This document shows positions 110-42,029 of a stretch of DNA of 64,000 bases, one piece after another. Position 1 is the stretch's first letter. Each line of letters begins with the position of its first letter. The position numbers were made by a program, and so were the translations under genes. The notes below the pieces were generated by a model. That model saw only the letters and a list, made by a program, of their open reading frames with translations, ran no database searches and had not been told where the DNA came from. The stretch is from Elusimicrobiota bacterium (GTDB lineage Bacteria; Elusimicrobiota; Endomicrobiia; Endomicrobiales; JAPLKN01), in contig JBHPNE010000002.1 in the NCBI GenBank assembly GCA_042562855.1, positions 7,643 through 71,642 on the forward strand, written 5' to 3'.

Positions 110-1144
110 ATGAAAAAAATCGTACTTTCATTTGTATGCGTGTTGTTTTTCAGTGTTTCAGTTTTTTCTGCGAAAATGCCTGGCTGGGTTAAGAAAGGAA
201 AAAGTAAGGAATACCCCCAAGGAAAGTATCTGGTTGGTATAGGCATGGGAGAAAATCTAGATTCTGCCAGGTCCAATGCGATGGCAGAGATTGCTAAAGT
301 GTTTGGCGCACAGATCGAACAAATCTCGGAAGATGTTAACACGAGTAAAATCACGACTAAAGGCAAAAAATCAAAAGAGAGCAGCGAAATGGATTCGGCA
401 ACAAAGACCAACGTTACGGTCGGAGAAAATATTGAGGGAATAGAGATCGTAGATAACTGGTTTAACAAAAAGAAAGAAATCCATTATGCAATGGCTGTTT
501 TAGACAAGCGTAAGATGGTAAAGACCTTGTCAGAAAAAATATCGGATCTTGAAGAGCATATTAAGAACCAAGTAGATCTAGCACATGAAACGCCCTCAAG
601 TATTGACAGGATCAGGGCATTAACCCGCGCTTTGGTATCCACCGCAGAAAAAGAGTATTTTGTAAACAGAAGAAGAGTTATTGATTCTGCTGATGTTCCG
701 GACCTGCCTTCGGGATTCTCAAAGTCGGACATAATAAATGTTAGAGAAAAAGCAATTAAAAACGTTGTTTTTGTTGTAGATTCAGGCGAACACAAAAAAT
801 TAAAAAGTGCCGTTAATGACAGAATTACCGGAATGGGTTTTAAAGTTTCAGACAGTATTCCAGAAAACAAGGCAAGATCTGTTGTTTTAGTAAAATGCAA
901 TACACAAATTTCACCTCTAGATAGAGGCCATCCAAAATGGAAATTCTACAGTTGGAAAATAAATGTGGATATGAAGGAAGTTTCTTCTAAGGAGGGGAGT
1001 TTCGCAGCTATTTCAGAAAAAGGCCAATCGTCGCATTTGAGCGTGGAAGCGGCGAAAAGTAAAGCAGAGGCAGATTCGGAGAGTAAATTAGCATCGGTTG
1101 TTGAAGAAAGGATTAAGCACTATGTTTTTGGCGGAGTAGAATAA
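110..1144 (+). CDS. Secreted LPP20-like protein (hypothetical)
   Basis: 344-aa ORF with an N-terminal signal peptide (MKKIVLSFVCVLFFSVSVFSA). The mature start PGWVKKG...KYLVGIGMG...ARSNAMAEIAKVF has the same pattern as the next ORF and, from memory, the LPP20 lipoprotein family. GAGGTG lies just upstream of the ATG. Confidence 0.6.
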   Translation: MKKIVLSFVCVLFFSVSVFSAKMPGWVKKGKSKEYPQGKYLVGIGMGENLDSARSNAMAEIAKVFGAQIEQISEDVNTSKITTKGKKSKESSEMDSATKTNVTVGENIEGIEIVDNWFNKKKEIHYAMAVLDKRKMVKTLSEKISDLEEHIKNQVDLAHETPSSIDRIRALTRALVSTAEKEYFVNRRRVIDSADVPDLPSGFSKSDIINVREKAIKNVVFVVDSGEHKKLKSAVNDRITGMGFKVSDSIPENKARSVVLVKCNTQISPLDRGHPKWKFYSWKINVDMKEVSSKEGSFAAISEKGQSSHLSVEAAKSKAEADSESKLASVVEERIKHYVFGGVE

Positions 1145-1257
1145 ACTAAATTTTAAAAAGGAGGATTTTCCCAAAGGGACAAATCCTACAAAAAACACCT
1201 AAAGGAGATTTAGTCCCAAGGGACAAATCTTATAAAAAAAGCGTAAAGGAGATTTAG

Positions 1258-1797
1258 ATGAAAAAGATGCACTTAGTTGTTTTTGCAGCTTTGTTTGCGA
1301 TTTTAGCTGGTTGTGCAAGCGCCCCCAAAAGACCGGATTGGATAGCGAAAGGTGCCGGAGCATTCCCGAAAGAGAAAAAGGTTTTGTATGGAGTCGGAAT
1401 TGCAGAAGGCATTAAATCCGAAGCATTAAGAAGAACAACAGCAGACAATCGTGCAATAGCTGAAGTTTCAAAGCAGCTTTCCACAATGTCTACCTCCATG
1501 ATGCGTGACTACATGAGTTCCGCGCTTGCAACTGAAGAAGAAAAGACAAAAGGTGAACAGTATGTAGAAAATACTGTTAAGACTTTTTCTTCAAACACTG
1601 TTTCCGGCATAAAAATATCAGATCGTTGGGATGACGGAAAGGTAACATATTCACTGGCAGAGCTTGATATTGAGGCTTTGAAAAGCATGGCTCAAAATAT
1701 CAGCCAATTAACAGATCAGGTAAGAGATTATATCAAAGCAAATGCTGAAAAAGCTTTTGATAAATTGGAAGAAGAACAGGCAAAAAGAGTAAACTAA
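1258..1797 (+). CDS. LPP20-like lipoprotein
   Basis: 179-aa ORF with lipobox ILAGC|AS. PDWIAKG...LYGVGIAEG...ALRRTTADNRAIAEVSKQL parallels ORF 110-1144. SD AAAGGAG lies 7 nt upstream. Confidence 0.65.
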   Translation: MKKMHLVVFAALFAILAGCASAPKRPDWIAKGAGAFPKEKKVLYGVGIAEGIKSEALRRTTADNRAIAEVSKQLSTMSTSMMRDYMSSALATEEEKTKGEQYVENTVKTFSSNTVSGIKISDRWDDGKVTYSLAELDIEALKSMAQNISQLTDQVRDYIKANAEKAFDKLEEEQAKRVN

Positions 1798-2352: not shown

Positions 2353-3627
2353 ATGCTTGATATCAAATTAATTCGTGAAAATGCAGAAAATATTTCAAAG
2401 GCTCTTGAAAAACGCGGTAAAAAGTTTTCTTTTAATGAGCTTTTGGCTTGGGATAAGGAAAGGCTAACCGTTCTTTCAGAAACGGAAGCATTAAGGGAGA
2501 AGCGCAATAAATCCGCTGAAGAAGTGGGCAAGCTAAAAAAGCTGAAAAAAGAACCTGCAAATAAATTAATTGAAGAAATGAATTCTGTCCGCGAATTGAT
2601 AAAAGAAAAAGAACAGAGTTTGTCGGTACTGGAACAGAAAATTGATAATTTTCTGCTAAACATACCTAATATACCTGATGAAACCACTCCGATAGGAAAG
2701 AATGAAAAGGAAAATAAAGTAATTAAGGAAGTCGGCAAAATAGAAAAGCTGGATTTTAAGGCCAGAACCCACTGGGAAATAGGGGAATATCTTGATATAT
2801 TGGATTTTGAGACAGCTGCCAAGCTTTCGGGGGCAAGATTTTCTCTTCTTAAAGGAGCAGGATGCGTGCTCGAGAGGGCGTTAATCAGTTTCTTTATTGA
2901 TACCCATGCAGAAAACGGTTATACAGAAATACTGGCTCCATATCTTGTGAGTGCAAAATCCATGCAGGGAACGGGCCAGCTTCCGAAATTCAGTGAGGAA
3001 TTATTTAAATGCAGCGACGATGATTTATATCTTATTCCGACAGCTGAAGTATCTATTACGAACATGCATCGTGATGAATTTATGGACGAAAAAGATCTGC
3101 CTAAAAAATATGTTTCGTATTCTGCGTGTTTCAGAAGGGAAGCCGGTTCATACGGCAAAGATACAAAGGGCTTGATAAGAAACCATCAGTTCAATAAGGT
3201 TGAATTGGTAAAGTTCACTAAACCAGGTGAATCTGCAAAAGAGCTTGAATCTTTGACAAAAGACGCTGAGGAGGTCTTGAAAAAACTGGGGTTAACTTAT
3301 CGCATAAATGAACTTTGCAGCGGTGATATCGGTTTTTCTGCATCAAAAACTTATGATTTGGAAGTATGGATGCCCGGCGAGCAGAAATGGAGAGAAATAT
3401 CCTCCTGCTCAAATTTTAAGGATTTTCAGGCCAGAAGAATGGATATCAAGGTGCGCTATAATGATAAGAAAAAAGATTTCGTGCATACCATAAACGGTTC
3501 GGGCGTTGCTGTGGGCAGGACATTTGCTGCGATTTTAGAAAACTATCAACAAAAAGACGGGTCAGTAATTGTTCCTGAAGTTCTAAGGCCTTATACAAAA
3601 TTTGACAAGATTACTGCAGCAAAATAA
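2353..3627 (+). CDS. serS: Seryl-tRNA synthetase
   Basis: 424 aa. [13 protein letters not shown]-terminal coiled-coil arm. Class II motifs [16 protein letters not shown]. Confidence 0.95.
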
Positions 3628-3631
3628 CTAT

Positions 3632-4396
3632 CTATTTCTTTTCTTCTTTTTTACCCTCAATCCAGTTCATAATATCATTTTCTGTTCTTCCGTTAAACAT
3701 GCCTACACCGTGTCCTCTTCTAGTCGTTATAAAGGAAGCTTTCGGATTGTCTTTAATAATTGAGTATAGAATCGCACTGCTTTTAAAAGCATAAATATCC
3801 TCTGCAGCAGCCACTATTGCAACCTTTTTTGTTTTATACGGATCAATATTTTCCAAGGTCTTCAAACCCATGTATTCAAGCCCGGGGGAAAGTAACACTA
3901 TAACGGGTACTTCGTAGTGGGATGCGCCGTAGATCATTGCAACGTTAGCGCCTATACTTGCTCCTATCAAGCCTATTTTATGCCTTTTAATTTCTTTTTC
4001 AGATATTAAGAAATTTATAACACTATTTAAGTCAACAATCATGTTTGTCCATTGGTCGGTTTCTGTGGGGTCTCCAAAAAAATTATAATTAAGTATGTTG
4101 CCGTCATCAACCTTATTGCTTTCCCCATGACCTCTTGCATCATAAGCTAAAACACCGTAACCTTTTCTCGCTAAAATCCCCTGCAGATGTTTCCATTCTT
4201 CCTTAGAGCTTCCAAGCCCATGAAGCAGTACAAAAGTCACCTTATCGGGACTGCCTGGTTTTATGAATGAACCATATATCTTAACACCGTCATTTGTAGA
4301 AAAGCTGATTTTATTCACTCGTATTGTCGCGGCAGCATTTAAAAGAACCGGCAGAAATATAAGTATTGCTAAAACAGTTTTAAATCTTAATTTCAT
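3632..4396 (-). CDS. Secreted alpha/beta-hydrolase
   Basis: 254 aa with a signal peptide. HGLGSSKEEW oxyanion region, nucleophile elbow GASIGA, C-terminal RRGHGVG His. Convergent with serS, with only 4 nt between the stops. Confidence 0.75.
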   Translation of the reverse strand: MKLRFKTVLAILIFLPVLLNAAATIRVNKISFSTNDGVKIYGSFIKPGSPDKVTFVLLHGLGSSKEEWKHLQGILARKGYGVLAYDARGHGESNKVDDGNILNYNFFGDPTETDQWTNMIVDLNSVINFLISEKEIKRHKIGLIGASIGANVAMIYGASHYEVPVIVLLSPGLEYMGLKTLENIDPYKTKKVAIVAAAEDIYAFKSSAILYSIIKDNPKASFITTRRGHGVGMFNGRTENDIMNWIEGKKEEKK

Positions 4397-4443
4397 AATT
4401 AATCTCCTTTAAAATAAAACCCTGGACACTATAATAGCATTTT

Positions 4444-6521
<2,078 letters not shown>

Positions 6522-7354: not shown

Positions 7355-10300
7355 ATGAGCAAAATAAAAAGAATTTTTGAAAAGGTGAGTGAAAGATACT
7401 TAAAAAAGCTATCCATTCCGGAACCTTTTGTCGAGGTTTTTGTAAATTTTAAAAAAGGGATTGCGGTTACTACAGCATTGGCATTTCTTTTCACTTCAGT
7501 ATTTGCGCAATCAATTTTTGCATTTACCGATACTAAAGACTTTTCAGATAAAAAAGTCCGCGAAACCTTAAACACGTTCACTATTCCTTATACGATAGGC
7601 AGGGTAACAGACGGAAAATATTATGGCAGCAAAAAAATTGTTATAAACATTCAAGATCTGCATTGCCATGCGGAAGTTCAGGGAAATATTAACAAAATAA
7701 TTGGTTTGTTGGACGATGCATACTCCATTTCAAAGGTGTATATAGAAGGTAGTAGCGGAGACCTCGACACCTCTTGGGTAAAAGCCATAAAAAATGAACA
7801 GTTAAGAAACAAAATAGTGGAAACATTCGTAGAATCCGGAAGGCTTACGGGTGCGGAGTACTATTCCATTCAAAAGAATAAACCAAAAATGCTTAAAGGT
7901 GTAGAAAACGAGAGAATTTATAAGAATAATGTGGTCCGTCTTGGTAAAATATTGGATCAACGCGAAGAAATAGCGGCTCAAATCCCCGCAGTAAAACAAG
8001 AGCTAAGTAGACTAAAAGATAAGTATTACAGCAGATATAATAAAAGGTTAGAGAAATTGCTTACTAGGTATGGAAATAATGAAATAAATACAGAAAAATT
8101 TTATAGGTTACTTGAAAAGTTGGCAAAAAAATCGAAGGTTGATTTTTATGAGTTTGATACAATTAAAAAACTTATTAGCTTAATGAAAGAGCAAAAGAGG
8201 TTAAAATATAAAATAATTAGCAAACAGTTGGCTTCTTATGTTAAACACTTAAAAGACAAGATGCCATACGCAACGTATAAGCTTTTGCTTGAAAAAACAA
8301 GTAATTTTTCAAAATTAGATGAAGTATACACCCACTTAAAAAAACTGTCCTATGCTTATAAAATCAACTTAAGCACAAAATATTCGGAACTAAATAAGTT
8401 TTTCGACTTCATTGATGCGAATCAAAAAATTAACCCAATAGACCTTGTTAGTGAAGAAAGAAAACTAATACAAAAAATCCATCAGAAAACATCTCAGAAT
8501 ATTGCGGAAGGTGAAATTGCCTTTATTTCAGATTTCTTCGCATACTTGGAGGAGTATTTAAATAACAAAATTTCAGCAAATGATTACGAATATTTTCAAA
8601 GAAACAGCAAAGATTTTAAAAAATTGTGGGCAAAATATGTATATTCAGAAAAAATTACAAATCTTGCTCCTTATTATGATTTGTTTGATGTTTTCTATAA
8701 GGTTAACATTGAAAGAAATAAATATTTTATCGAAAACACTCTGGGGAATATCCCGGTACTAAATAGTGGGATAAGTCCAGTTGCAGATATTAACCATATT
8801 GATGAAACATTAAAATCGTTAAAGAATGCCAAAGAAATAATTGTTTTGGTAACGGGTGGTTTCCATACTGAAGGATTGGAAAGATTGCTCAGCAGAAGGG
8901 AAGTTTCTTACCTTGTAATCACTCCGAATGTTACGAAGGATACAAAATTTGCTGACACTGTTTATAATAAGTTTGCAAAACAGCAAGCAAAACGGTTTGC
9001 TTCTCAAACGATGGCTTTAGAAGCCTATTCTAAAAGTTTAGCAACGGGTACCATGGACGAAATTAAACTTAAAGTAGTTCGCGACTTTGCGCAAGATCAG
9101 TTAAAAATTGCATTTAAAGGTAAAAAACCAGAAAAGATTGCCGAGGATATAAACAGCGTTTTTCAAAACAAGGAAAATAATTTGGAAGGAAGTTTTTCAT
9201 ATTTTCCGGAAAAATCATCAGAGAAAGGGAATAAGTATTATTTTGAATATAAGTATAAGGACAAAACTGTTTCTTTGCTTTTGTCGGCGGAAGATGAAAT
9301 AACGATATTTGATACAAAATTTCATTATTTTAAATATCTCTTAAATTCCAAAGAAATAGTAAAAAAAGAAGATGAAAAGGCTGTTAGTTGGGATTTAAAT
9401 AAAATAATGCAGTCTGCTCAAGCTAAGAATCTGGTCGATTTAATTAATGAATTAGTCGAATTGGAGGAAGAATCAGGGCAATATTTAACAGAGTTTAATA
9501 AATCCATAAAAGTAGTATTTATTGAGATGGTTAAAAACAAGATAAGAAGCCAACAAACTTTAGAAGACATTGCCGAGGATTTCGGTTTTTCAAGAGACGA
9601 TACCATTCAATTCAGAAAATCACTCGCGAGTACAGGATTAGCCTTCGCTACAAGACAAGAAGAGTCACTTACTTTAAAGTCAACTTATAGAAAATATAAA
9701 AGCCTTTACAATTTCTTTCATAGAAAGAAAAATCATTTACCCGAAGATTGGACTAACAGAGAAAAGTACGGGGATGAATATGTAAAACAGATGAAGAATG
9801 CGGAAATCTGGCTTGCGCCAATAGTTGAATACGCTAAAATCAGGCGTATTTCAAATGCTTGGAACGAGAAGAAAAAAGAGTTAATAAATGAATTTTTTGG
9901 TGGACATGAATGGAACGAAGATCAAGAAAAGAGAAAATATGCAAAAGGAGGAATTAAAGATATAAGTGAATCCATGGAAAAGGGATCAGTGATAGGTACT
10001 ACTTTAGGTATTATAATTGGTTTGACAATTCAAATAACTCTGTGGATGATTTTTAGCATAGAAAAAATGTCGGCATTGGGAGTAGTGACAATGTTGTACA
10101 TAGCCACACCTGTCATTTTTATTATTTTAGCATCATCTTTGGGAGCGTTTATAGGACATGCCGTTAGCCATAGAAAATATGACAAAGAATATGGAACTAA
10201 GACTAAAGCGGAAAAAGAAAAACTTGAAAGAGAGGGAAAAGAAGTCATCGAGGCACCACTGACAACTGATGTTACAACATTTGAATTGCTAGAGTTGTAT

Positions 10301-13300
10301 TTAAAAAAAGAAGCAAAGAAAGTCTTAAAGAGAGAATTAAAAGATAAGGAACTAGATCTAATTTATGACATAATATCCATTAATGCAAGAATGTATCCCG
10401 GTTATATTTCAAAAAACGATATGTTACAAATACTTGCTGAAGAGATTAAAATGATTATTAATAATTTTAATAATGTGTTTGGCAAGCTACCTTCCGAAAA
10501 AGAGTTGAGCTTATTTTTTGAAAATATAAAATTGAGCCCCGATATTCAAGAGACAGAATCGGAAATGAACAAGATAGTAGAAAAAATACTTAAAGTAAAT
10601 GAGATGTATGACAAATATTTCAATCGTGAACCTGATATCGAAGAATTAATGTTTATTATAGGCCAAATAAATAGCAAGAAAAATAAGGATGATATTATTG
10701 CTGGTATAGAAAAAATACTTGAAAGCATAAAAATAATAGTTAAAGAGTATACACATGAAAAAGAACTTACAAGAAACGAAATTATCTATATTTACAAAGA
10801 GGAGCTAAAAGCCAGCAAACCAAACAAGGAAAAAATATATTTGAAAATGTTGTTAATTCAAAATATATTTAGGCAAAATGTTAAAAGACTTCCCAACGCT
10901 AGAGAAATGAAGTTAATTTCATACAAAACAGAAAGTCAGGAGGAGATAATTGAAAGAATAGAACAAATATCTCTGGTAAGAAAATATGTAAAAGACGAAA
11001 TAAATTATTTACATTTAATGGAGCTAACAGAAATATTAGTAAACAATATCTTAGACATAAAAAAAGGTGACAGGAAGCGCAAGATAACTAAAATATTAAA
11101 AAACTTGAAAATACTTAAGGATGTTTATAGGGAAATATTTGGTTTGCCCGTAATTATACGGGATGCGGAATCTTACAGGAGACAAATCGGAGAAGAATTT
11201 AGTGAGCAAACGGTAAGAGAATATTTATTGAACGTAAAATCACAAAAAGATGAAATTAAAAGGGTTATGGAAATACTGGCAATATTATACGACGAGGGAA
11301 TTACCGGAGTAAAAAAACAAGAATTTATCGATGCGATTGCATACCAATACGGTGTAAATATTGCGAATCTGTTCAGAGAATCATTAATTGACGGCATGGA
11401 ATATATGATAGAATCCCCGGTTACAAATAATATTGATTTCAAAGTATCAGATGAGTTAAAAAGTAAATACGGCGATAAGAATAAAGACAATACCGAATTT
11501 ATATTGAAAAGGATAAGTGAAGCGATATATTTGAAACAAATAGATGACATGCTTGAGGATAAACTGGAGATCACAAGCAGTCTCATTTCACAAAGAGATG
11601 ACCATTTGACTTTTAAAATACGAATAAAAAATGAAGTTGACGAAAAAATGATTATATTTCCGATAAGTAAAAGTAAGAAAAAATATTTTGAAATTGAATA
11701 TCAGATGCTTAAAAAACTCGGGAGTCTGCTCGGTACATTGGAAGTATCGGCAGAAACAGAAGAAATATGCATGAGAAGCGGAAAGTTGGAAGCAATAATA
11801 ATGGAAGACAAAATCGATAAGGAGCAATATGAAACCTTACAAATGATATTAGAGTTTCACATAGAACGGGCCTTGCAAATAGCAGCCGGTAATAATGAAA
11901 TTAGCATATTTAATATTGATGAATATAAAGACAATTATGAAGATGTTTCAAAAGATGCTGCAGAAACATTAAAAAATATAATAATCGAGGCAAAAGAAAT
12001 TTTAGGAAGAAACCCTAGTCTTAAGGAAATATTGGGGATCTCAAAAATTTACTTGAAAAAGCCGCATATAACATCAATTGGGGTTTCTGTTAAAACGTAC
12101 GTAGGAGAGATAACGGAAAAGAGAGCAATAAGGCTAGCGTTCGCTGTGGGTATCGTTAGAGCTTGGCTGAATGATGGCGTTGATACAGATGAATTGTGCA
12201 AAACTTTATATTTAAAATTGATAGAAAACATAAAATCGGAGAAAGAAATATTTGACGATATTGAAAATATTGCAGTAGAATACTTTAGCAGTAACCCTAA
12301 TGTCGCTTTCAAAAATGAATTTAAGAAACAGTATAACTTGGAACAAAAAAGTAACGAGGAAATTATTATCGGTATATTGGAAGATGTATTTGGATCGGAA
12401 TATTTACCGTATAAAGCTGAGCTAATAAAGTTGCGAATGGCGGAAATAGAATTTGATAAAAGGGCGCCTCTGGGAAGGAATATTGTAGAAGTATGGATTA
12501 ATGGGTCACAAAAGGGAATGTTTGATGTAATGTCAAAATTAAAATATGCAAATTGGAGAAAGCTGGAATCAAGCCTCATTAGTATTTTAGATATAAATGC
12601 GGTAAAGGAAATAAAAGCTTTGGAAAAATATAATTCAACTTTCGTTGTCGATGAATCGAAGTACAAAAATTTATTAGACAGAGTTACAAGCTATTTGTCA
12701 AAATTCAAATTATCATATAGCAGCAATATTGATAGCGAAAAATCAAAAAAAATAATAGGAGATCTGGAAAACTTAAAACATGGCATCAAAAATGCACTAT
12801 TAGAATATTACAAAAACTTTGGCATAAATCGAGGAGATAATTTAAATAATGATGTATCTAAATGTTTGCGGACTGTAGTTTTACACGGTGAAGATCCGGA
12901 AGAGGTAGTTAAAAGGTTAGGTTTAAAAGTTTTAAGTAATATGGGGCTTGAAGGCGCACAAGGACAAGCACAGCAGGTGGAACTCACTCAACCAAAAACA
13001 ATTGAGGAAGCGGTTAAAGATTTTACTTCCCAAAATGGCAGTCAAAAAGAAATCAAGGCCCAAAATATTGCGGTAAAACTCGGGAAAAGGTATGAAAATG
13101 AAATTACTTTAGAAAAATTAAAAAACCGTGAAATATTTAAGACAATTAAAAATCTTGTGAAAGATGAGTTCTATAAAAGTGACGAAATGATAAGGTTGAT
13201 AGTACTATATGCGGCTCTATACAAGGCTCCTCGCACAGAGGCATTCAAGCTAGCATTCAGATCCAAAAAATTTGTTGATGGGCATAAAAACTTCAACGTA

Positions 13301-16300
13301 AAACAAAAAGGCAAACTGCTAGAAAAAACCAAAGAGATCCAGGAAAAAGGTTATAGTCTGAAAGTGGCACGTGGGCTTGCAATTATTGCAGCAATTGCAG
13401 CATTTGCAGTTACATTTGCAGTATTTGTTATACCGATTGCATTTATAAAATTAGTAATGAGTATGGTTACTGTGACCATAGCCTTTTTTGTGCCCCCGCT
13501 CCCATATTATAAAAAAATAAAAGGGATACATTTTGAAGAGAATTTAGAATTTCTTAAAACTGGAAAAGGCTTACTTCTTATGCAAGAGGATGGAAAAGAA
13601 AGCGCAGAATTAACTCTTGTAGAAAAGCTGAAAAAGAAATTTACTACCCCTAAAACTATAGATTTATCCACATTTGATTTTGATGCAATGGTTAAATTTG
13701 CAAACGAAAATAAAAAAAGTAATATGTCCTCGGATGTAATATTTGTATGCGTAATCCATGCGTCTATAGAAATTTATGGTCGTTACCAAAATAGTATCAA
13801 TGTACAATTAAAAGAAAAAATAAGTGAGAAAATTATTTACACTTCTTCAGGAGAAGACCTTAGAAAATTATTTAGTGAATTATTGAATTATAATCCTGAT
13901 ATTAAAGCTATGTCTGATTTAGAATTAAAAATAGATTCAAAAATAATTCGAGAATTTGTTAATAAAAGTATAGATGATGCCATAGAAAAACATGAACATA
14001 AAGGGTTGGTAATGCAAATAAAAGATGATATTTTAGAACAAATATCTTACAAGCAAAGAATTTTGGAACAAATTCTGGAAATAATACCCGATGAGCTAAA
14101 AAAAGGTATTACTGCAGAAAAAATACAGGAATCAGTTATTACTGATAATATTGATAATCAGTACAGGTTAAAAAACAACCTGCCCCCAACAATAGTTTTT
14201 AGCGGTGACTTATTCAAGGGATCGTTAAAAGAAACTCCTGACTATATTGCTTTCACTATTGATAAAGAATTTGTAGCAGTAAATACTGTTTTTGGAGAAT
14301 TTGGAAAAGGGGGATTAAGATATTATCCGCCTTCTTCAGAAGAATTTTATGACAGCAAGATTAAAGGAGAAGCTGTAAAACAAGTTTTTATAGAAGATAT
14401 TGATCTTGCAAATGCTATGGATTTAAAAAATATATTTGCAGATGTATTTTTCACTGGTGGGAAAACAATTATTTTAGCAAAACCTACCGTTAAAAAGGAG
14501 GAAGCATTAAGAACACATAAAGATGGAATCATTGAACGTTGGGCCGCTTCTTCAATAATGGCAGGTATGCTCTGCACGCATTACATAGCCGGTCCAGATA
14601 TGAATGCAGGTGACAATGATATGCAGAGGTTAGTTGAAATAGCAGATGCTGTTCAACGTGCTTTATATGAAATGGATCCTGAAAAATATGCCCACTTTAG
14701 AGAACCTTTAAGAGCCACAACTAGTACACCAGACGGATTTTCGCATATGAATTGGCAGGTAACAAGTACAACAGTGTTGTTTGCGCTTCTAACATTACTT
14801 CAGGATAAAAAGGTATGCGAAAAATATGATATTAAAAAAGACGAAAATGGAGATATCAGTATTATTATACAGGGCTTCGGAGATGTTGGAAGTGGTATAG
14901 TAAAAATACTGTATGATACTATAAGGTCCGAAAAAGAGATTATTAAAATTGACAATATCGAGTATGATGTTGATATTATTGAAAAAAATAGAATTTCTCC
15001 AAATCAAACAGAAATTAACGGAAGGAAATACAAAACAAAAAAAGTAAATGAAGATTACATACTACGTCCTGATTATGGAATAAAGGTTGTTGGATTGACT
15101 ACCAGTTGGATGAATGATGAGAATAATCCTGAAATTGGTGGTATATACAACGAAAATGGCTTAGATCCGGACGAATTGATACGGTTGAGAGAAAAAATAG
15201 AAAAATATGGTACAACATCGGTAAATCTTCATAAAGATTATAATGATAAAGAAGATACCGGTGTAACAGTAAGAGGGAGTAGCCGTGACGTGCTAACAAA
15301 GCCAGCCAACTTTTTAATTCCTGCAGCAGGGCCGTCGCAATTTACAAGCAGAGAATTAGAGCCTGACCCACAAGCTATAATAGACAACGGTTATGTTCTT
15401 GTTGAGGAGCTCGATGTAGATGGCGTAATTGAAGGAGCCAATGATTCTTTCAAGAAAGGTGTTGCGGAAATATTTCATCATGTTTTGCATAAGTTATTTT
15501 TGCCAGGTCCAATGTGTAATGCAGGCGGAGTACAGACATCTCAAGATGAATGGACGTACATTATTTTGATTGGATTGGAGGAAGTAATAAAAAATATGCT
15601 AAGTCTAAGAGAAATAACACGTTCAAAAATTACCACTTTAACCATTTATAATATACGAAGAATTTTAGAGGAGTTGAAAAAATCCGAATACAAAAAAACC
15701 CCATCAGATATTTTAGACGAATTTGTAAATTCTATTAGAGATCAAATGAAAAACATTGATGAATATGATCAGATTATTATTGATCGAATTACTAATACTA
15801 TTATTGATAAATTTCGTAATAGAAAAGATATTGCAAAAATAATTGCAGAATTTACTTATGCAAGAAGAAAAGCAATGAATAATATTGAAGTATCGGACGA
15901 AGCGATAGATGATATTATTCAAAATATTAAGCAAGGAGATCATTTTAAGGCCAGGTCATCAGCATATGAGCTTAGGCTATTGGATCTTAATAGACTATCG
16001 GCTAAGAAAAGATATGCATTAGTTATGAGATTAATAGGAATTGTAAGGGATATAGGATTATCGTATAAAATTCGCGGCGCAGTAGTTGACAGTTTATCTT
16101 CTATTGCAATAAACACTCCTGATACTATTGAGGGGCAAAGATTGTCTGATGCCATAAAGCAAAGTCTGAACTCATTAATTAATAATCCTAAATTCCTTAA
16201 TCTGTATCCATATATTTGGTCGACTAATCTTAGGATCAACCATTTTAAAGTTAAACATGATGAAAAAATTGAGCAGGGAAAACTGCCAAATGTAGAATCA

Positions 16301-19300
16301 TTAGGTTTTCTAAAAAAGCATGGAACATCTGGCTGGCGCAAAGGCTTAAAAGCTTCTTGGGAACAGGATTTAGCTTGGGAACAGGATCTAACAAATCTTG
16401 CTATTGAAATGAAGCTCGAAAAGAATTTTCTTAAAAGATCTCATAAAAGAGCGTTTATCATTGAAGTACAAAAAAAAGTAGAAAAATACTTCTATTCACT
16501 CAACAAAGATAGAAATATACAGAAAATAAAAGATGAAAAAGAACCTGGAATATTCAATACTCCTGTTCTCGCAACTTACAATCGAGAATTTAAAAATGAA
16601 ACAATGAGGTATGCATTGCGCCATGGGCTTTTGTCTAAAGTTCCTACAGTGGGGTATCTTCGTGAAAATATTGAGAAGTATAGAGAGCATTATGAAGCAT
16701 TTGATTATTCCGGTGATAGTGCAAGTGCATCACGGTTGACGGTTGAAAACATGAAAGCGTTGGAAATAGTGGTGGAGATGGCTGAGAATGATGAAATTGA
16801 TAATGATACAAAGGTAGATATTGGTTTTATGAATTGTTCAATGAAAGATGAAAAAAGGATAGTAGTGTATAGGTTTAAGGGAAAACACGTGATAGAAACT
16901 CAGAAATATGAATTAAACAGTGCAGGCGATAGCGTTGTGCAGATTGGGGAAATACTAGAAGTATACACTTTAGATAAGTTTAGAAATATTAACGACGCTG
17001 AGATTAAAGAAAAGTTAGTTCATTTGTACAACAATGGAGTATTGATGTATTACCTAGAAAAATTTGTAAAACTAGAAGGCAATGAAAACAATATTCAAAT
17101 TCTTAATAACATTAAGAGAGTGTTAGAAAAGTTCAAATGGTCTAAAGCCAAAGAAGGCTTTGAGCCTGGCGATGTTGCACTAGCATTTCATAGCCAAGGA
17201 TATAGAATAGGTAAAATATTTGGTGATGCTAATTTGTCACTTATTACAGACACTCGTCAAAAAAAGGACAAGTTGCCCTTTGTAAATGAATCGAGTATTA
17301 AAAAGGCCATTGAATTCTTTAAAGAGCCTAACAAATCCGAGCAAGAAGAAATAAGCAACTTTTTTGATAATTTCGAAGAAAATTATGGATATAAATGGGA
17401 CGAAGCCCTCGGCAGTACCATAGTTCAGCAAATTGCAGGTGCAGGGGAATATGTAAGCATTCCGTATGACCACTTTGTAAAAATATATCTTTGGGCAGCA
17501 TACAAAATAGCTCCGTATAAGGAAGACATAAGAGATAAATCGTTTGCCAAGGGGCATATACACTATACTCCGGATCAAATAAAGGAAGTAGATAACGATG
17601 TTGAAAAAAGTATTGCAAAAATTGAAAGTATAGATGATCTTGTTATGGACCTCATAATTTCTTTCGTTGACTATTCTCTGATTCCAGAAATTCAGAAAGA
17701 AGCTACAAAATTAGCGGAAAGCATTTCAAAAAACATTAAAGATGGAATGGAGTCCATACTTCATCTTAAACACAATATAGAGACAGTGCCAGGTGAAGGA
17801 TTGCCTTGGGTGCAAGATGAAGATAGTGAAAATCTAGAACAACTAAAACAAGGTATTTTTGATAAAATAATGAAAGCAGAGGAATCTTCTCTCAAACCAC
17901 ACAAACCATATTATGATGAAGATGAATCAAAAAAACAGGCAAAAGATCTTTCTGAGGCAATAATTAAAAAAGACACTGATGATATTCGTTTTTATGTGAA
18001 AAAAATAGTGTTAAGATATGCTGGAGCGGATTCTGAGCATTTTCAAAGTACCTATTTTGACATAGTCAGGTACTGCAAAAAACTTGCTTGGTATCTTGGA
18101 GAATTGAAAGAAATAGAGGAATATTCACCGTATTTTGAAGTGATAACAGTAGCAATGGTGCAGTCATATGAAATGATAATCCCAATTATTGAACAATCTA
18201 TCATAACATTAAACGAAGAAAAAAATGATAATTACTGGACTAAGGGAAATGCAAAGGCAATAACGGAAGGATTAGGGGGGGTTACAGAAGGAGTCAATAA
18301 TTTATTAACAGACTTTAATAAAAAATTTGTTACCTCAAATATGGTTAAAATTTGTAAGGATTTGAAAGGAAAAGCTGATAAACTCGAAAAAAGTACAAAG
18401 GAATTCTTGAAACACATGGATGCAGTGATTGAACTTATGGAACTTATTAAAATAGTGATAGTGGATGAAAAAAATGTTCCGTTTGATAAGCTTAAGCTTG
18501 GTGAGGATTTGAAAGGTAAGTATATCATGAAAGTTGGTTTGGTAGAGATTATATGGGGTACCGATAAGGATAAAGTCCTTGGCATGCTCCGTGAGTTTGT
18601 GACACATGATTCTCGTAAATATGTAAAGCATGAGTTAATTTATATTTTAATAGAATACATAGGAAATACATTTAAACTTGATGCAGCCTTTTTTAATCAT
18701 GATGATGTGAAAGCGTTTATTCCTGAGCTTGTGCGTAAAAAAATAATTAAAAATATCAAAGAGGGAGAAAAATGGTATAAACAGACAATACATGACCCGC
18801 TTATTGTGGAAATATTGGAAGAAAGTTATAAAATAAAAGGTACGGCAAATAGACATGCACTAAACAATTTAGTCGAAGGAATATTTCTAAATGATAAAGA
18901 TGCAATCATTTATGGTATCAGAGAGTTAACAGCGGACAACATAAAGAAATCTGAATCGTTTGAAGAAAAATATGGCGATGCAATACAGTTTTGTAATGAT
19001 TATATTTATTTTATGGGTAAATTGAAAGGCAGAGTTGAATTTGAATCACATTTTAAGGCAATAACAGTGGCTATGGCTCAGGCGTATAGAAACATAGCTT
19101 CAATTGCGACCGAAGCGATAAAAAAGTTGGAAGAAAATGAATATGAAGAGCAATCAGTTGCAGCAAACAGGAATGCGATTTTGAAAGTATTGGAAGAATT
19201 GGACAAGAATTCTAAGGAGCTTCTGACTGGATTTTCGCCTGAATATATTAATGATGAAATGGTTAAAATTAAGAAGGAACTTGAGAATGAAGTATGGCAG

Positions 19301-22300
19301 CTTATGGTGTCAGATATTCAAATTGATAATGAACTTAAAAGGTATGCGGAAAAGCTTAAATTTGATCCCGAAGAATTTATTTATCTCAAAGGGTTATATA
19401 AGCAATTTATAGAAAGCGTTGGGAAGAAGGAGGTTGCAAAGATATATCTCGGAGACAATTTCAAAAGTGCATCGCAAATGTCAGAAACAGAGAGGAGAAA
19501 ATGGTTTGGTCCCGAATATAATGATATTAAAAAAGATCATAAAAAAAATGTTAAAGCTGCCAAGACAGTAAATGTTATAGAAAAACGTATGAATGGAGGA
19601 ATTTGGACATCTGCTCTGGAAAAAATGGAATATTTAAAGAGAATATTGAACGATTTGTCTGATAGGGGAGGAAGGTTTACAAAAGATGGAAAATGTTTCA
19701 TTGGCCCAAAATCTACGGATCTTTTCTTTGATGTCGAAGGAGTTATCTATATTGATAGCGAAGGCAAGGAAGGATTGCGTACAGTAAAAGTAAATATATC
19801 AGAAGCAAGAATATTGCAGTTGCTAGAGTCAGTTGAGAGAAAAGAATATGCTAGTGTTTCCATACAACAATTGGCAAGTCAAAAAACAATAGATGCTATA
19901 AATGACCTATACGATACAATCTATTTGTACGACAGGATGGATGATAGGATCCCCAGTGATAAGAAGCGCGCTTATAAGGAAATACTGGAAGAATATGAAA
20001 TGTATAGGGAGCCGTTAATCCAGGGAACCCTTCCGACCATTGATCCCAAAACAAATAGATTATCAGAAAAATTTCTTGCACCCGGAGGACATGGATATTG
20101 GGCTTTTAAAGAGTTCTTAACCATTCTAGGGGTAGAAAAAGAGGAAGCTGAAAATATTATTGTTGTTATAGCTAATGAGGACGGGCTTAATAATTTATAC
20201 GATCAGAATTTAATAGGGTATATGAAACGCACTGACCTTCCGGTTATGTTACTCTCGACAACAAGAACAGCTTTAGATAATAAAGGAGGTTTATTTGGAA
20301 TATTAGAACGTATTCTTGCAATGCTAGAGGCAAAGGAAGCAGAATTATCAGGCAGAGATAAACTTGGAATGTTTTATAAAATGGGACTTATACCGGGTTT
20401 TGGAGAATTGGGCAAAGAACGATTCAATCTTAATACGTCATTGTTTAATGTTGAAAAACTTTCTCCGCTTCTGAAAGAGCTTGTTGATGATATAATTGGC
20501 AAAGAGCGGTTTTATGAAATTATAAAACCTCCATTATTGCAAAATATTAAAAAAGGAGAAGTTGGAAATCCTAATGATCCACCAAGAATTCAGATGGAGG
20601 GATTGTTGGCATCAGTTATTTTAGAACTTAACAGTTATTTTTTATTATTAGGAGATAGTCCAGAAGATAGTAGAGTAAAAAATTTGCTTAGAACAAAAGG
20701 AATATTAAGAAAAAATGATAAGGGGGAAGAGATTGTTCGTTTTGTTGAAGTTATCAATATAGACACTGAAGATAGGACAGATTTCTTTACTCCTATAAAA
20801 ACACCGATTGATTTTTGCTTACAATACAATAGTGATTTATTTGGAGTTAATGCAAAGACATGGAAATTAAAATATCAGAAAAAGGGTGCATTGCCTGCCT
20901 TTCAGCTACATCCTTTCTATAACAGTCTAGACCAAATGGAAATAGCATTTGGTAATACAAGTACAGTTGGTCTTAAAGCACTCACAATAAATGGCAAAGT
21001 ATATTTTCCTGACACAATATTGGAAGGAAATGTATTAATGGCGTGTTTTACCGATGAACCATTTGATTTAACGCTTCAAGAGAACAGAGAACAATTGATA
21101 GAAGTTTTTGATTTGGCACTTCAAGAGAACATGATAGAAGTTGGTGGAGGATCTGGGATAAGCGAGGTAGATGGAAAACTTAAATTAAAAAATATTGCGA
21201 TAACAATCGACAAAGATGGAAGAATTTCTGTTAATGGAATGGGTAAACTTTCTGAAGAAAAAATGCTGATTTTGCCCATAACAAAGAAAATTTCTGCAAG
21301 AATAATTAGATTGTTTGGAGGAGATCCCGCAAAGCATCAGAAAGTCTATAAAGCTTTGGCTTTCATTCTGGCACCTATAATAGAAACGGTTCTATTAATA
21401 TTTTATTACCTCCCATCTGTTTTTTCAAAATCTACTGAAGACCATCCAACGGGCCTTTCAAAATTCGCTGAAGACCATGACCCTGCGACACAAGAAGAGA
21501 GAGGTCAGCTTAAAAAAGGGGTAAAAGCTGTTGTAAAAACGGGCCTTCTTTTTGCATTTGCTGCAGGGATTTATTTCTTATCTTTATTCATATTGAACCC
21601 TTCATTAGCTTTGATAGCATCTAATTGGTTATCGAACGCTCTAGAAATATTAGTTTTGTTTGTTGTAGGATTAGTTGCGGGACACGCCGGAGTAAACATT
21701 GTAATTTGGAGGAAGCAGAAGCATTTAATTATTAAAAGAGATAATGACACTATAATACAGGTTGATTCTCCTGACGACGGAGCAAAATTCGCTGTTGATA
21801 AACTTGCGAGAACTATCAGGGAAAATGATATTATAGGCAAGGAAACAGTGGTAATGTTAGCTACTGGTGGTACTATGGAGCCGTTTTATAACGAACTTGT
21901 ACGCAGAAACAAATTGAGCTCAAAACATAAAAATTATCTTAATCTCTCTAACTTGATTATTTTTAATTTAGACGAATATGAAGGAATTGAAATTTTCAGA
22001 AATGAGATTTTTGAAAATTTAATAGAAGAAACAAATGTAAATCCTGATAATTTCTATTTCTGGTATGGTAAAAATCCGATAAAAGAACAAATAGAACGAA
22101 TGGAAAAACTGATTTCAAACTACGGCGGGATTGATTTTGCTTTCGTAGGTATAGGCGCAAACGGCCATGTAGGGAAAAATGAGCCTGGGACAAATCCGGA
22201 AGTTTCTGGAGCAGTTGTGATAAGTCCGCAAACAAGGCGTGACAACGCCAGGGCGTTTGATAATAAAGAAGAATTAGTCCCGGAAAAGTGGTTCGGTTTT

Positions 22301-26034: not shown

Positions 26035-27960
26035 ATGCTTTCCAGAAAACTTTTATTTTTATCAGTTTTATTTTTTGCAGGAAATTTTTCTTACTTATCT
26101 GCCGAGTCATTTCCGCTTTTCGACAAAGGGACAGAAAAAATTGTTAAATACGGCGAGTATGGAGAATTCACCAATGTGGGGAAACCAAATTATAAATATG
26201 TAATCAAAAATAAGGCTGCATTAAGACAAGCTGTAGGCGAAGGTATTTACCCCAATGTAAAAAGTGTGTTGCGCGACCCGGCTTATAAAAAAGCCAACAA
26301 AGAAGGAAAGTTAAGCGGAAATATCTGGGACTACATTAACACCGATAATCATGGTTTAAATTTTTATAAATGGGCTACTTCAGCGCAGGAACCGGGCACA
26401 AAACTTTATTACACGGCACTTGCCCTGGAAAGGGGCGGAAATATCGCTCATGCGATAAAGGCTTATTATGCAACCGTTGTCCATTGGCCGAAGTCAACTG
26501 GTTCAACATACTGGGGTACGGTTTGGTATATTGCTCCTGTGTCCATAGACAGGATAAGATACCTGACAAAAAAATATCCAAATTTAGGCATGAAACTTGT
26601 TGGCTGTTCTATACGGGTAAAAAATGGTTTTGATAACGACAAAAATAACGACGAGTTTATAATTCACCCTGGTAAAATGATAGAGGCCACGCCGGAAGAC
26701 TTCGTACAGAAAAGAGAGCCCATCGAAAAAATGAAGGTCCTGGAAACCGTTGGTGAAGGAAAAGTAAAATTAAAAAAATATGAAAACAGGCATTGGCAGT
26801 TGTTTGTGAGCGGCGTGCCTTACATTATCCGCGGCATGGCGTATTCTCCTAACAAAGTCGGTTTGAGCCCGGACAACGGTACATTAAATGTTTCAAGAGA
26901 CTGGCAATTTGCCGATTATAACAACAACGGAATTATTGACGCTCCGTTTGAATCATATCTTGATAGAAATGGTAATAATAAAAGGGATAATGACGAAAAA
27001 ATAGTCGGTGATTTTACGCTTATGAAGAACATGGGTGTAAATACACTAAGGCTTTATCATCATCCGGATTTCAATAAAGAACTATTACGCAAGGGTTATG
27101 AAGATTATGGCTTCATGTATTTGATGGGGGATTTTATCGGTATGTATACCGCAGGATCCAATGCGGACTGGTATTATGGTACCGATTATACAAATCCGGA
27201 AGATATAGATAATATGCTTGAAAGCGTGAGCAAAATGGTCAAGGATTACAGGAATGAGCCTTATATTTTAATGTGGGTTTTGGGAAATGAAAATAATTAT
27301 GGTGGTCCTGGTGAGCCGGGCGTAAGTGCCGGTTCAGGATGTCGGGCAAAGATCCAGCCGGAAGCCTACTACAAATTTGTAAATAAAGCTGTAAAACTTA
27401 TAAAGGCATTAGATTCTCAGAAAAGACCGGTTGCTGTATGTAACGGAGATACCCTCTACTTAGATATTTGTGCAAAAAATGCCCCAAAATTAGATGTCTT
27501 TGGGGCAAATTGCTACAGAGGAGAACAGGGTTTTGGGTCTTTATGGTGGGACGTGAAAGATATTTACGATAAACCCGTTTTGATTACGGAATATGGATGT
27601 TCTGCACATCATTCAAGGTGGCCGAAAAAGCGTTCAGACAATGCTCAAGCAAGATATCATATCGGAAACTGGCTGGATTTAGAGTCTAACTTCGCCGGTT
27701 TTGGAGAGGGTAATGCTTTAGGCGGTATCGTTTTTGAATGGACAGATGAATGGTGGAAAGCCGGCCCACCTCCGCAATTTAGCCCCATTGAACAGGATAA
27801 AGTAGGTAAGTTTGGAGCACCTTTTCTGGATGGTTGGAGTTATGAAGAAGTATTGGGAATAACTACTCAAGGCGATGGAACGGATAGCCCGTTTTTACGT
27901 ACTTTAAGGCCGGCATTTTTTGCTTACGAAAGTCTATGGAGAAAATACAAAAGTAAATAA
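26035..27960 (+). CDS. Secreted glycoside hydrolase, clan GH-A (beta/alpha)8 barrel (GH2/GH5-like)
   Basis: 641 aa with a signal peptide. GVNTLRLYHHP, MWVLGNENNYG (acid/base NE), ITEYGCSAH (nucleophile E), FEWTDEWWK. Confidence 0.7.
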   Translation: MLSRKLLFLSVLFFAGNFSYLSAESFPLFDKGTEKIVKYGEYGEFTNVGKPNYKYVIKNKAALRQAVGEGIYPNVKSVLRDPAYKKANKEGKLSGNIWDYINTDNHGLNFYKWATSAQEPGTKLYYTALALERGGNIAHAIKAYYATVVHWPKSTGSTYWGTVWYIAPVSIDRIRYLTKKYPNLGMKLVGCSIRVKNGFDNDKNNDEFIIHPGKMIEATPEDFVQKREPIEKMKVLETVGEGKVKLKKYENRHWQLFVSGVPYIIRGMAYSPNKVGLSPDNGTLNVSRDWQFADYNNNGIIDAPFESYLDRNGNNKRDNDEKIVGDFTLMKNMGVNTLRLYHHPDFNKELLRKGYEDYGFMYLMGDFIGMYTAGSNADWYYGTDYTNPEDIDNMLESVSKMVKDYRNEPYILMWVLGNENNYGGPGEPGVSAGSGCRAKIQPEAYYKFVNKAVKLIKALDSQKRPVAVCNGDTLYLDICAKNAPKLDVFGANCYRGEQGFGSLWWDVKDIYDKPVLITEYGCSAHHSRWPKKRSDNAQARYHIGNWLDLESNFAGFGEGNALGGIVFEWTDEWWKAGPPPQFSPIEQDKVGKFGAPFLDGWSYEEVLGITTQGDGTDSPFLRTLRPAFFAYESLWRKYKSK

Positions 27961-28073
27961 TATTAAAAATGTGCCCATTTTTCTTGTTATTTTTTGAATT
28001 ATTCAGGCTCATGTTGTCAGTTTTTAAAAAGTGTTTTCGTATTATAAAGTCAATATGAAAATGCGAAAAATAC

Positions 28074-28102
28074 TTGACTTATTTGAAAACATTAGATAAA
28101 AT
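28074..28102 (+). promoter_or_regulatory. Sigma70-type promoter candidate, possibly giving a leaderless mRNA
   Basis: TTGACT (28074-28079), 17-nt spacer, TAAAAT (28097-28102). ATG 28111 lies only 8 nt after the -10 element, with no SD. Confidence 0.45.
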
Positions 28103-28110
28103 AATAAGAA

Positions 28111-30432: not shown

Positions 30433-30463
30433 TAAATAATAGAAAATCACAGAAGAGGAGATT

Positions 30464-31705: not shown

Positions 31706-31727
31706 AGGGTAATACACAGAATAAACG

Positions 31728-32390: not shown

Positions 32391-32407
32391 TTTGGAGTAA
32401 TTCTTAA

Positions 32408-32899: not shown

Positions 32900-32920
32900 A
32901 GTAGCGCAGTTTGAGGTTAA

Positions 32921-33850: not shown

Positions 33851-33944
33851 CTCTTGACGATATAACATATACAGGTTATATAGAAGTTGAAATTAACAGT
33901 GCTTGTTTAGTACTGTTTTATTTTTTATTCAAATCTTTAAAAAA

Positions 33945-35456: not shown

Positions 35457-35644
35457 TATCCCAATAGACTCACCATTGTACGATGTTTACAACTCAAAAT
35501 TTCTTTGGTATAATACCAGTAACTACAAAAAGCTTTGTAATTACAGAGGAATTATGCAAAAGCTTTCAGTTTCCTTCTTTATTAGTCCAACCAGATCAAG
35601 TTTTAGTTCTTATCTTAAAATCAGTAGCAAATATTGGAGATACT

Positions 35645-36361: not shown

Positions 36362-36380
36362 TGTTGTTTGGGGGAAGAAA

Positions 36381-37124: not shown

Positions 37125-37209
37125 AAAGGGTAGTTATTTACTTATCTCGAATCTTTTTATAGAATGGAAATATAGTTAATACTGTAACAAGGGTTATATA
37201 GGAGGAATA

Positions 37210-37923: not shown

Positions 37924-37924
37924 G

Positions 37925-41035: not shown

Positions 41036-41036
41036 A

Positions 41037-41960: not shown

Positions 41961-41969
41961 AAAATATGA

Positions 41970-41998: not shown

Positions 41999-42029
41999 TC
42001 TTTAGTATTTTGTTTACAGGGAGGAAGAA

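Follow-up and report, generated by a model that had tools for sequence, protein, structure and literature searches.

We identified a genuine, very divergent homologue of the Glu/Leu/Phe/Val (ELFV) dehydrogenases, closest to the glutamate dehydrogenases (GDHs), in the middle of a giant protein encoded by an uncultured Elusimicrobiota bacterium. The window, that is, the whole stretch of DNA that was analysed, comprises 64,000 nucleotides (nt) of contig JBHPNE010000002.1, and the homologue is encoded at 14180-15700 (all coordinates are those of the window). This region lies entirely within a single plus-strand open reading frame (ORF) of 17.5 kb (7355-24922), and corresponds to residues 2276-2782 of the 5,855-amino-acid (aa) product. 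The actual unit is a cassette of ~750 residues, consisting of a helical lead, the GDH-type core and a HEAT-like tail; the original prediction, made from motifs matched by eye, had captured the core, and the unit extends beyond it to aa 2206-2958. On balance, we consider it somewhat probable that the cassette acts as an NAD(P)-linked amino-acid dehydrogenase whose pocket, of the glutamate type, accommodates a distal carboxylate, and that it is held in a membrane-anchored multi-enzyme chain.

The placement of a GDH-like domain within the giant ORF is borne out by profile and structure comparisons. Of the two Pfam models named as a check on the prediction, PF00208 matched aa 2595-2734 well above its cut-off (46.3 bits versus 23.4; E 5.7e-12), whereas PF02812 remained below its own, as detailed further on. 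Automated pipelines have already attached PF00208 to the giant protein, and the bare domain call is not new. Searched as a single sequence against the Protein Data Bank (PDB) with phmmer, the module yielded marginal matches only (best E 0.023). A family profile built from the module and its nine nearest relatives matched 93 PDB sequences at E<=0.01, with GDHs at the top (E 6.4e-34), Leu/Phe dehydrogenases at E 1e-15 to 1e-16 and, over the tail, designed HEAT-like alphaRep proteins down to E 1.8e-25. Conversely, a profile of canonical GDHs only scored 83 bits against the giant ORF and found no other match in the six-frame translation of the window. When the family profile was aligned by hhalign with one of 14 canonical GDHs, the probability was 100 % and E 3.3e-44 over 362 columns, the alignment extending over the N-terminal substrate domain too.

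The structural model points in the same direction. The AlphaFold2 (AF2) model of aa 2201-2960 has a mean pLDDT of 82.7 and a pTM of 0.85, with weak confidence at a 48-residue insertion and in short loops, and the beta-alpha-beta elements of the Rossmann domain are visible in it. The 50 PDB matches listed by Foldseek for this model are all GDHs or close relatives (E 5e-15 to 5e-13, probability 1.00), with target TM-scores of 0.53-0.66 for the 50-kDa GDHs.

The ELFV motifs quoted in the original prediction are all present, collinear and in frame within 14180-15700: GKGGLRYYP at aa 2317-2325 (nt 14303-14329), AMDLK at 2354-2358, FFTGGKTIILAKP at 2365-2377, IAGPDMNAGDNDM at 2411-2423, IIIQGFGDVGSG at 2503-2514, GIYNENGLDPDEL at 2596-2608, LIPAAGPSQ at 2654-2662, VIEGANDSF at 2691-2699 and LPGPMCNAGGVQTSQDEW at 2716-2733. 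HMMER, MAFFT and hhalign agree on the following residue equivalences, with the numbering of K114, K126 and D168 taken from PDB chain alignments:

14306..14308, plus strand: K2318, equivalent to bovine K90; FGKGGLRYYP aligned with PCKGGIRFST
14426..14428, plus strand: K2358, equivalent to K114; AMDLKN aligned with LMT(F/Y)KC; Lys in 49/58 family members
14462..14464, plus strand: K2370, equivalent to K126; FTGGKTIILAKP aligned with FGGAKGGISIDP; Lys in 48/59 family members
14597..14599, plus strand: D2415 of the GPD motif, equivalent to D168; IAGPDM aligned with VPAPD(Y/M); Asp in 53/59
14873-14890, plus strand: G2507, G2509 and G2512 of the GxGxxG motif; IQGFGDVGSG aligned with VQGLGNVGYH
PAAG motif: LIPAAGPSQF aligned with canonical LIPAALENVI
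N2696, equivalent to N349: IEGAND aligned with canonical GEGANG
S2729, equivalent to S381: NAGGVQTS aligned with canonical NAGGVTVS; Ser in 58/62 family members

In GDHs, K90 binds the distal carboxylate and K114 the alpha-carboxylate, and K126 and D168 are catalytic. The three lysines and the aspartate are thus retained, as had been predicted from the motifs, and so are both residues of the K90/S381 pocket (K2318 and S2729). Among 68 family members, the key active-site positions are 81-97 % conserved, and the three GxGxxG glycines are found in 65/67, 65/67 and 56/67 sequences. Judging from these alignments, most members look catalytically competent and a minority do not, with the nucleotide-binding site as the most conserved trait of the family.

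The GDH-HEAT cassette and its relatives

The limits of the cassette and its parts were defined as follows:

13970..16228, plus strand: whole GDH-HEAT cassette, aa 2206-2958 (envelope of the family hidden Markov model, end-to-end alignment with ~750-aa proteins, AF2 and Foldseek)
14135..14764, plus strand: substrate-binding domain (domain I), aa ~2261-2470, ending at GFSHMNW (alignments, AF2, weak PF02812 match)
14765..15559, plus strand: Rossmann domain, aa ~2471-2735, with the GxGxxG, PAAG, EGAN and NAGGVQTS motifs (PF00208, E 5.7e-12)
14930..15073, plus strand: 48-aa insertion, aa 2526-2573, between the GxGxxG helix and strand beta-2, modelled with low AF2 confidence
15101..15103, plus strand: T2583, at the end of strand beta-2 in the Rossmann domain, with a 9-aa insertion after it; Asp/Asn in 63/66 relatives
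15560..16228, plus strand: HEAT-like all-helical tail, aa 2736-2958 (HEAT_2 tails of relatives, alphaRep profile matches, AF2)

The helical lead carries a TNAF..R motif. The tail of the window copy has no Pfam HEAT match; it aligns with the HEAT_2-positive tails of relatives and forms helical repeats in the AF2 model. Sizeable insertions after the first motif and after the dinucleotide-binding loop, which the original prediction had noted, were recovered as ~17-20 aa following the GKGG strand, present in relatives too, and as the 48-aa segment listed above; the GDH-type domain contains two further, smaller insertions.

Relatives of the module are rare. A search of 5.8 billion proteins returned only a dozen, at 23-32 % identity, several of which are proteins of ~650-830 aa combining PF00208 with HEAT in Altiarchaeales, Gemmataceae and Omnitrophota. 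The phmmer match to one free-standing protein, P0001, reached E 1.6e-35 with 99 % query coverage, and coverage was 97-100 % for two others, P0002 and P0003. Among 1.84 billion cluster representatives, HMMER found 88 at E<=1e-30, about 65 of which are true members, canonical GDHs beginning at about E 1e-30. The family is recognisable by the signatures GGF-x-H-x-x-W, QGFGDVG, EGAN(N) and N-x-GG-x-x-x-S, present in the window copy as GFSHMNW, QGFGDVG, EGAND and NAGGVQTS. The almost invariant GGF-x-H-x-x-W is found in a subfamily that lacks the canonical R211.

In many members the cassette is internal to proteins of 1.2-5.9 thousand aa (kaa). Cassette-containing frames in GTDB genomes measure ~740-840 codons in Altiarchaeales and Gemmataceae, and in metagenome-assembled genomes (MAGs) of Omnitrophota and Planctomycetales the frames stay open for >4,800 to >7,200 codons, through the whole fetched locus. 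The presence of such a domain in a giant protein, which the original prediction considered unusual, is therefore a recurrent arrangement, and multi-enzyme giants have already been described from Omnitrophota. In BLASTP comparisons with other cassette carriers, the window protein shares only the cassette (22-28 % identity), apart from P0185, P0219 and P0280, which also have a distant version of its head domain (see below). No orthologous giant was found in these searches; the similar-sized P0177 (5,865 aa) and P0147 (5,817 aa) have the cassette alone in common with it. The GDH-HEAT cassette is an evolutionarily mobile unit that occurs alone or embedded in giants of Omnitrophota, Planctomycetota and Elusimicrobiota. 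Its partner domains elsewhere include Kdo-kinase-like, RNA polymerase alpha-subunit C-terminal, GGDEF, REC, HPr, M54 peptidase and LysM domains.

The order of the substrate-domain strands varies within the family. In nine members, including the window copy, the K90-type GKGGxR hairpin precedes the K114/K126 motifs, as in canonical GDHs; in 13 others, among them P0001, P0003, P0004, P0144, P0012 and P0147, it follows these motifs, with a degenerate remnant at the original site. Judging from motif order, this shift is an internal permutation of the substrate domain.

In the literature that we searched, neither GDH-HEAT fusions nor giant proteins with a GDH domain are described. The cassette as a distinct, rare and mobile ELFV subfamily, its frequent tie to signal peptides and giant proteins, and its internal strand-order permutation all appear to be undescribed.

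The giant protein and its genomic setting

Besides the cassette, the following features were delineated in the giant protein:

7355..24922, plus strand: giant ORF, 5,855 aa; MFC1500921.1 (ACFL58_00525), 'hypothetical protein', Elusimicrobiota bacterium MAG
7460..7522, plus strand: hydrophobic segment near the N-terminus, aa 36-56, preceded by a Lys/Arg-rich tail of 35 aa; signal peptide/anchor-like
7532..9064, plus strand: head domain, aa ~60-570, common to >100 giants, with invariant H103, H105, E131 and H504
9986..10171, plus strand: hydrophobic hairpin 1, aa 878-939, two helices of transmembrane length with 'EK' between them
13355..13507, plus strand: hydrophobic hairpin 2, aa 2001-2051, two helices of transmembrane length with 'K' between them
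19352..21394, plus strand: UDP-sugar-pyrophosphorylase-like module, aa ~4000-4680 (PF01704, E 2e-8)
21344..21712, plus strand: hydrophobic cluster of ~3 helices by hydropathy, aa 4664-4690, 4725-4750 and 4756-4786
21761..22471, plus strand: NagB-like module, aa ~4803-5039 (NF002557, E 2e-43; TIGR00502, E 5e-38; PF01182)

The protein was identified as MFC1500921.1 by exact look-up, its encoding contig being 78.6 kb long. Given that the source is a MAG and that other phyla have free-standing versions of the cassette, one could suppose that the giant ORF is a mis-assembly or a run of joined genes, which would make the GDH-like gene an ordinary free-standing one. We regard this as very improbable: a stop-free run of 5,855 codons has P about 1e-228 at this base composition (33 % GC), each of the other five frames has between 173 and 665 stops over the same length, and composition is even across the gene. 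Moreover, hydrophobic hairpins and other modules flank the cassette in frame, the head domain is common to more than 100 independent giants, and independent assemblies from other phyla likewise embed the cassette in the very long frames described above.

The neighbours of the giant gene, namely those for seryl-tRNA synthetase, BioA, BioD, DNA polymerase I and tRNAs, confirm that it resides in an ordinary bacterial chromosome. The GC fraction is 0.30-0.345 per 2-kb bin in the giant gene versus 0.37-0.41 in the flanking genes, with base composition even along its length, and the product is rich in Lys (11.1 %), Ile (9.8 %) and Glu (9.4 %) and contains 0.3 % Cys. BLASTP detected no internal repeats at E<=1e-3. 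No significant Pfam or NCBIfam match was obtained for aa 940-2000 (nt ~10172-13354) or for aa 2960-4000 (nt ~16232-19354), each about 1,000 residues long; the only match returned for the two was a sub-threshold DUF4214.

The membrane tethering assumed in the original prediction is supported by hydropathy only, which identifies about eight helices of transmembrane length in the giant; here and below, topology and signal calls come from crude hydropathy heuristics. Giants with the same head average 5.3 hydrophobic regions, about half of hairpin length, and their N-terminal tail is net positive in 108/113 cases, often with an AxA-like motif next to it. With a Lys/Arg-rich tail, then a hydrophobic stretch and small residues, the start of the giant resembles a Sec-type signal peptide or anchor whose N-terminus lies inside.

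A homologue search with residues 1-5000 retrieved 168 proteins, almost all of them 2.8-7.8-kaa proteins of Elusimicrobiota/Endomicrobia. In BLASTP comparisons, 118 of 119 giants match the window protein only over aa ~30-570 (30-44 % identity), and the remainder of these sister giants consists of phosphoglucomutase, PGI, PGK, PFK, PEP-utilising, UDPGP, adenylate kinase, NUDIX, HD, radical SAM, HEAT and other domains. Since they share only the head and differ in their enzyme domains, these proteins form a family with a conserved head and variable enzyme cargo, which also appears to be undescribed. The head, with its motifs IQDLHCH, EG and GGFH, had no match among Pfam, NCBIfam or PDB sequences. 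Its AF2 model (pLDDT 78.8) was most similar in Foldseek to the erythromycin esterase EreC (E 0.025, TM-score 0.17-0.24), a weak lead towards an Ere/Tiki/ChaN-like hydrolase fold.

By these matches, the window giant carries at least three enzyme-like cargo modules: GDH-HEAT, UDP-sugar-pyrophosphorylase-like and NagB-like. The UDPGP-like module recurs in five other listed giants (27-33 % identity), including P0018, which has three tandem copies, P0019 and P0094. The NagB-like module scores below the equivalog cut-offs of NF002557 and TIGR00502, and a similar one is found in the giant P0091. A weak MupG_N-like match is also present in the window protein.

According to precomputed Pfam domains, P0094 (6,752 aa, JGI) is the only other listed giant of the head family with an ELFV module. 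This module, at aa ~3330-3720, is of the Leu/Phe-dehydrogenase type (TIGGTR, GGSK and ANAGG), and ELFV-type cargo therefore entered such giants at least twice. The head region of P0094 is distantly related (27 % identity over aa 32-287), and the protein also carries PGK, PEP-utiliser, UDPGP and HEAT domains.

Elsewhere in the window, ~16 ORFs on one strand (26035-42858) directly follow the giant gene and a tRNA-Val gene on the 3' side. Nearly all have signal-peptide-like N-termini and almost none has a Pfam match, the exceptions being a GH2 TIM-barrel, DUF5683, Big_2 and a sub-threshold CHU_C/T9SS-type C-terminal domain. Two adjoining genes for LPP20-family lipoproteins (PF02169, E 1e-12 and 5e-7) are located at the start of the window (110-1797).

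Activity, substrate and location of the cassette

If the cassette is a GDH-type dehydrogenase, NAD(P)(H) would be held by the Rossmann domain, and T2583, standing where beta-2 usually ends in an acid or amide, might hint at NADP or at altered cofactor binding. Through K2318, K2358 and S2729, the inter-domain cleft could accommodate a substrate bearing a distal carboxylate, either an amino acid or a 2-oxo acid, and reversible oxidative deamination would then be carried out by K2370 and D2415 as in GDHs. The hydrophobic hairpins between modules would stitch the chain to the membrane, and the HEAT-like tail together with the flanking hairpins may dock the enzyme in a membrane-anchored multi-enzyme assembly.

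Several observations weigh against this interpretation. The description of the catalytic motifs as intact holds for the three lysines and the aspartate, but not for their surroundings. The glycine-rich GGGKGG turn has become TGGKTI, with T-I in place of G-G after the catalytic Lys (T/S plus V/I family-wide); the Arg of the HGR motif (R211) is replaced by M or N in the window copy, with no conserved Arg anywhere in the subfamily; and T2583, where the canonical GDH controls have Glu, is a Thr in the window copy alone (1/66). The 48-aa insertion is likewise confined to the window copy and, together with the 9-aa one, burdens the Rossmann domain. The PF02812 match (aa 2317-2427) reaches 15.9 bits, below the 25.3 cut-off (E 0.011). 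The NCBIfam equivalogs GdhA/GdhB scored 28.6 bits against a cut-off of 620 and 16.5 against 536, and all GDH equivalogs 17-29 against 536-750. The status of a canonical GDH is rejected, as the equivalog thresholds, the glycine-rich turn and R211 all fail. Catalysis is, moreover, not universal in the family, because ~10-19 % of members have lost the equivalents of K114, K126 or D168. Our searches found no close orthologue of the module and no conserved operon or partner domain pointing to a substrate; the neighbours of a free-standing archaeal homologue (locus L004) are housekeeping genes, without operon logic.

Location adds to these difficulties. Because the N-terminus is inside and two hairpins separate the signal anchor from the cassette, the formal topology (a net-positive tail followed by 1+2+2 transmembrane helices) places the cassette outside the cytoplasm, where we know of no NAD(P) pool. 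The head and the UDPGP-like module would formally be outside as well, and the NagB-like C-terminus inside. Among 53 informative cassette representatives, 29 begin like a signal peptide and have further transmembrane segments, even in number, ahead of the cassette; one has an odd number, 19 have neither feature (free-standing proteins) and four are ambiguous, with upstream transmembrane segments and no signal-like start. Of 39 canonical controls of GDH size, the same heuristic flagged only one.

A less probable, yet serious, alternative is that of a pseudoenzyme, in which the GDH fold and nucleotide site are kept without turnover and the cassette serves as a sensor of an amino-acid or nucleotide ligand, or as a structural or docking unit with its HEAT-like tail. 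The GxGxxG glycines and the family-specific His and Trp are the best conserved positions, above the catalytic Lys (81 %) and Asp (90 %), and the lost glycine-rich turn and R211, the unique Thr at the ribose-binding position and the disordered insertions fit such a role. The same is true of the predicted export of the window protein and many relatives to a site with no known supply of NAD(P)H, and of the partners of relatives, which are often signalling or binding domains (GGDEF, REC, HPr, LysM). On the other hand, the K/K/K/D set and the equivalents of S381 and N349 are kept at only 23-30 % identity to relatives, a retention that would be difficult to account for if the active site were not under selection, and the free-standing cytoplasmic members resemble ordinary enzymes.

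Alternatively, and in our estimate unlikely, the cassette could be an active ELFV-type enzyme acting on another amino or amino-dicarboxylic acid, possibly one of cell-wall or amino-sugar metabolism, alongside the NagB-like and UDPGP-like modules. The loss of R211 and the change from G-G to T-I would reshape the pocket, and the company of NagB-like, UDPGP-like and weak MupG_N domains in the window protein, LysM in the carrier P0140, a weak PIG-L match in P0139, and SLT-like and polysaccharide-deacetylase genes near the archaeal homologue is suggestive. However, the equivalents of K90 and S381, which define the distal-carboxylate pocket, are kept, the amino-sugar partners are not systematic among the varied partner domains listed above, and 52 related loci contained no homologue of NagB or UDPGP at up to 10 kb from the cassette; the formal topology even places the NagB-like module across the membrane from the cassette. 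For the same reasons (unrelated partners, the 52 loci and opposite membrane sides), an ammonia relay from NagB to GDH, or a general amino-sugar link, is unsupported.

Export of the cassette to the periplasm or cell surface by a Sec-type signal, here and in about half of the relatives, is suggested by the topology counts above but seems doubtful to us. The signal heuristic produced some false positives among other ORFs of the window, which speaks against export. So does the requirement of GDH, UDPGP and many sister cargo domains (kinases, radical SAM, AAA+, GGDEF) for cytoplasmic cofactors. The authors of the reports on Omnitrophota giants themselves distrust the extracellular predictions for their proteins (bioRxiv 10.1101/2023.11.21.568195; 10.64898/2026.06.07.730766). 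Once outside, the cassette would either act on metabolites and nucleotides derived from a host, prey or the environment, or have taken on a non-redox role such as binding. In favour of export, P0140 from Elusimicrobia (locus L008, 405-4706) unites a textbook signal peptide, LysM and the cassette.

The giant multi-enzyme membrane proteins of Omnitrophota, Elusimicrobiota and their relatives are among the least understood bacterial gene products, and the GDH-type cassette offers a convenient handle on the activity and location of their modules, with chemistry that can be followed by NAD(P)H absorbance, identifiable catalytic residues and a free-standing version of ~750 aa. If the cassette is active as an amino-acid dehydrogenase, these giants would be real membrane-anchored metabolons. 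If it is exported, this NAD(P)-fold dehydrogenase would be unusual in residing beyond the cytoplasm, and the giants of Elusimicrobiota and Omnitrophota would display part of 'central metabolism' extracytoplasmically. A rare ELFV subfamily with its own signatures, a HEAT-like tail and a strand-order permutation is also relevant to the evolution of GDHs.

Comparison with known systems

The nearest relatives of the window module are the free-standing GDH-HEAT proteins of Altiarchaeales, Gemmataceae and other groups, represented by P0001, P0002 and P0003, the last of which is annotated in NCBI as 'Glu/Leu/Phe/Val dehydrogenase, partial' (contig DSAL01000116.1). Lead, core and tail align end to end at 23-30 % identity. 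Unlike the giant, these proteins are soluble, with neither a signal peptide nor a transmembrane segment; most are permuted, their K90 hairpin coming after the K126 strand, in contrast to the canonical order of the window copy. The 48-aa insertion is absent from them, and the position of T2583 is occupied by Asp or Asn.

At the level of the whole protein, the closest parallels are the Omnitrophota giants described as 'Archaeovorins' (West-Roberts et al. 2023, bioRxiv 10.1101/2023.11.21.568195) and as 'multi-enzyme metabolic clusters' (bioRxiv 10.64898/2026.06.07.730766). A survey has reported that Elusimicrobiota are enriched in proteins above 5,000 aa. The Omnitrophota giants and the window protein alike combine, in one ORF, many transmembrane segments, HEAT-type or HEAT-like scaffolding and several enzyme domains of central metabolism, and in both the predicted extracellular site of these domains is puzzling. 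Furthermore, giant ORFs in Omnitrophota MAGs contain the same GDH-HEAT cassette. Neither the two preprints nor the survey mention a GDH domain. They differ in that the Omnitrophota giants are at least 10 kaa long, whereas the window protein has 5.9 kaa, comes from Elusimicrobiota and bears a head typical of that phylum. In addition, a divergent SecA DEAD-helicase domain is stated for most Omnitrophota giants, whereas the window protein has no PF07517 match at E<=0.1; Pfam detected no SecA_DEAD, C39 or S8 domain in it.

The Leu/Phe/Val dehydrogenases (3VPX, 1C1D) belong to the same superfamily. The window module keeps the GKGG Lys, unlike the Leu/Phe-type module of P0094, and its family profile scores far better against GDHs (6.4e-34) than against Leu/Phe dehydrogenases (1e-15 to 1e-16). 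With the hexameric ~50-kDa GDHs, such as those of bovine and human origin (1NQT/6G2U), Thermococcus profundus (1EUZ), Pyrococcus furiosus (1GTM) and Thermotoga maritima (1B26), the module shares the two-domain fold (target TM-score 0.57-0.66) and the collinear K90, K114, K126, D168, N349, S381 and GxGxxG positions at 14-18 % identity. It departs from them in its GGF-x-H-x-x-W and QGFGDVG/EGANN signatures, and adds insertions, the helical lead, the HEAT-like tail and the context of a 5,855-aa membrane protein.

The large GDH of Mycobacterium smegmatis, L-GDH180 (7JSR, 9HUX), is a soluble enzyme in which, as in the cassette, a GDH core is set between long helical N- and C-terminal regions. It gave the best Foldseek query coverage, with a query TM-score of 0.49-0.50 over ~860 columns versus 0.34-0.39 for the 50-kDa GDHs. 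Its identity to the cassette is 11-12 %, and it has no transmembrane segments and stands outside any multi-enzyme chain. Membership in the large GDHs (L-GDH180/115) is rejected: the resemblance is structural only, and none of the Pfam models of that group was among the six families found at E<=0.1. The likeness, as far as the structural models indicate, may instead stem from helical flanks of the GDH core that are ancient or arose by convergence.

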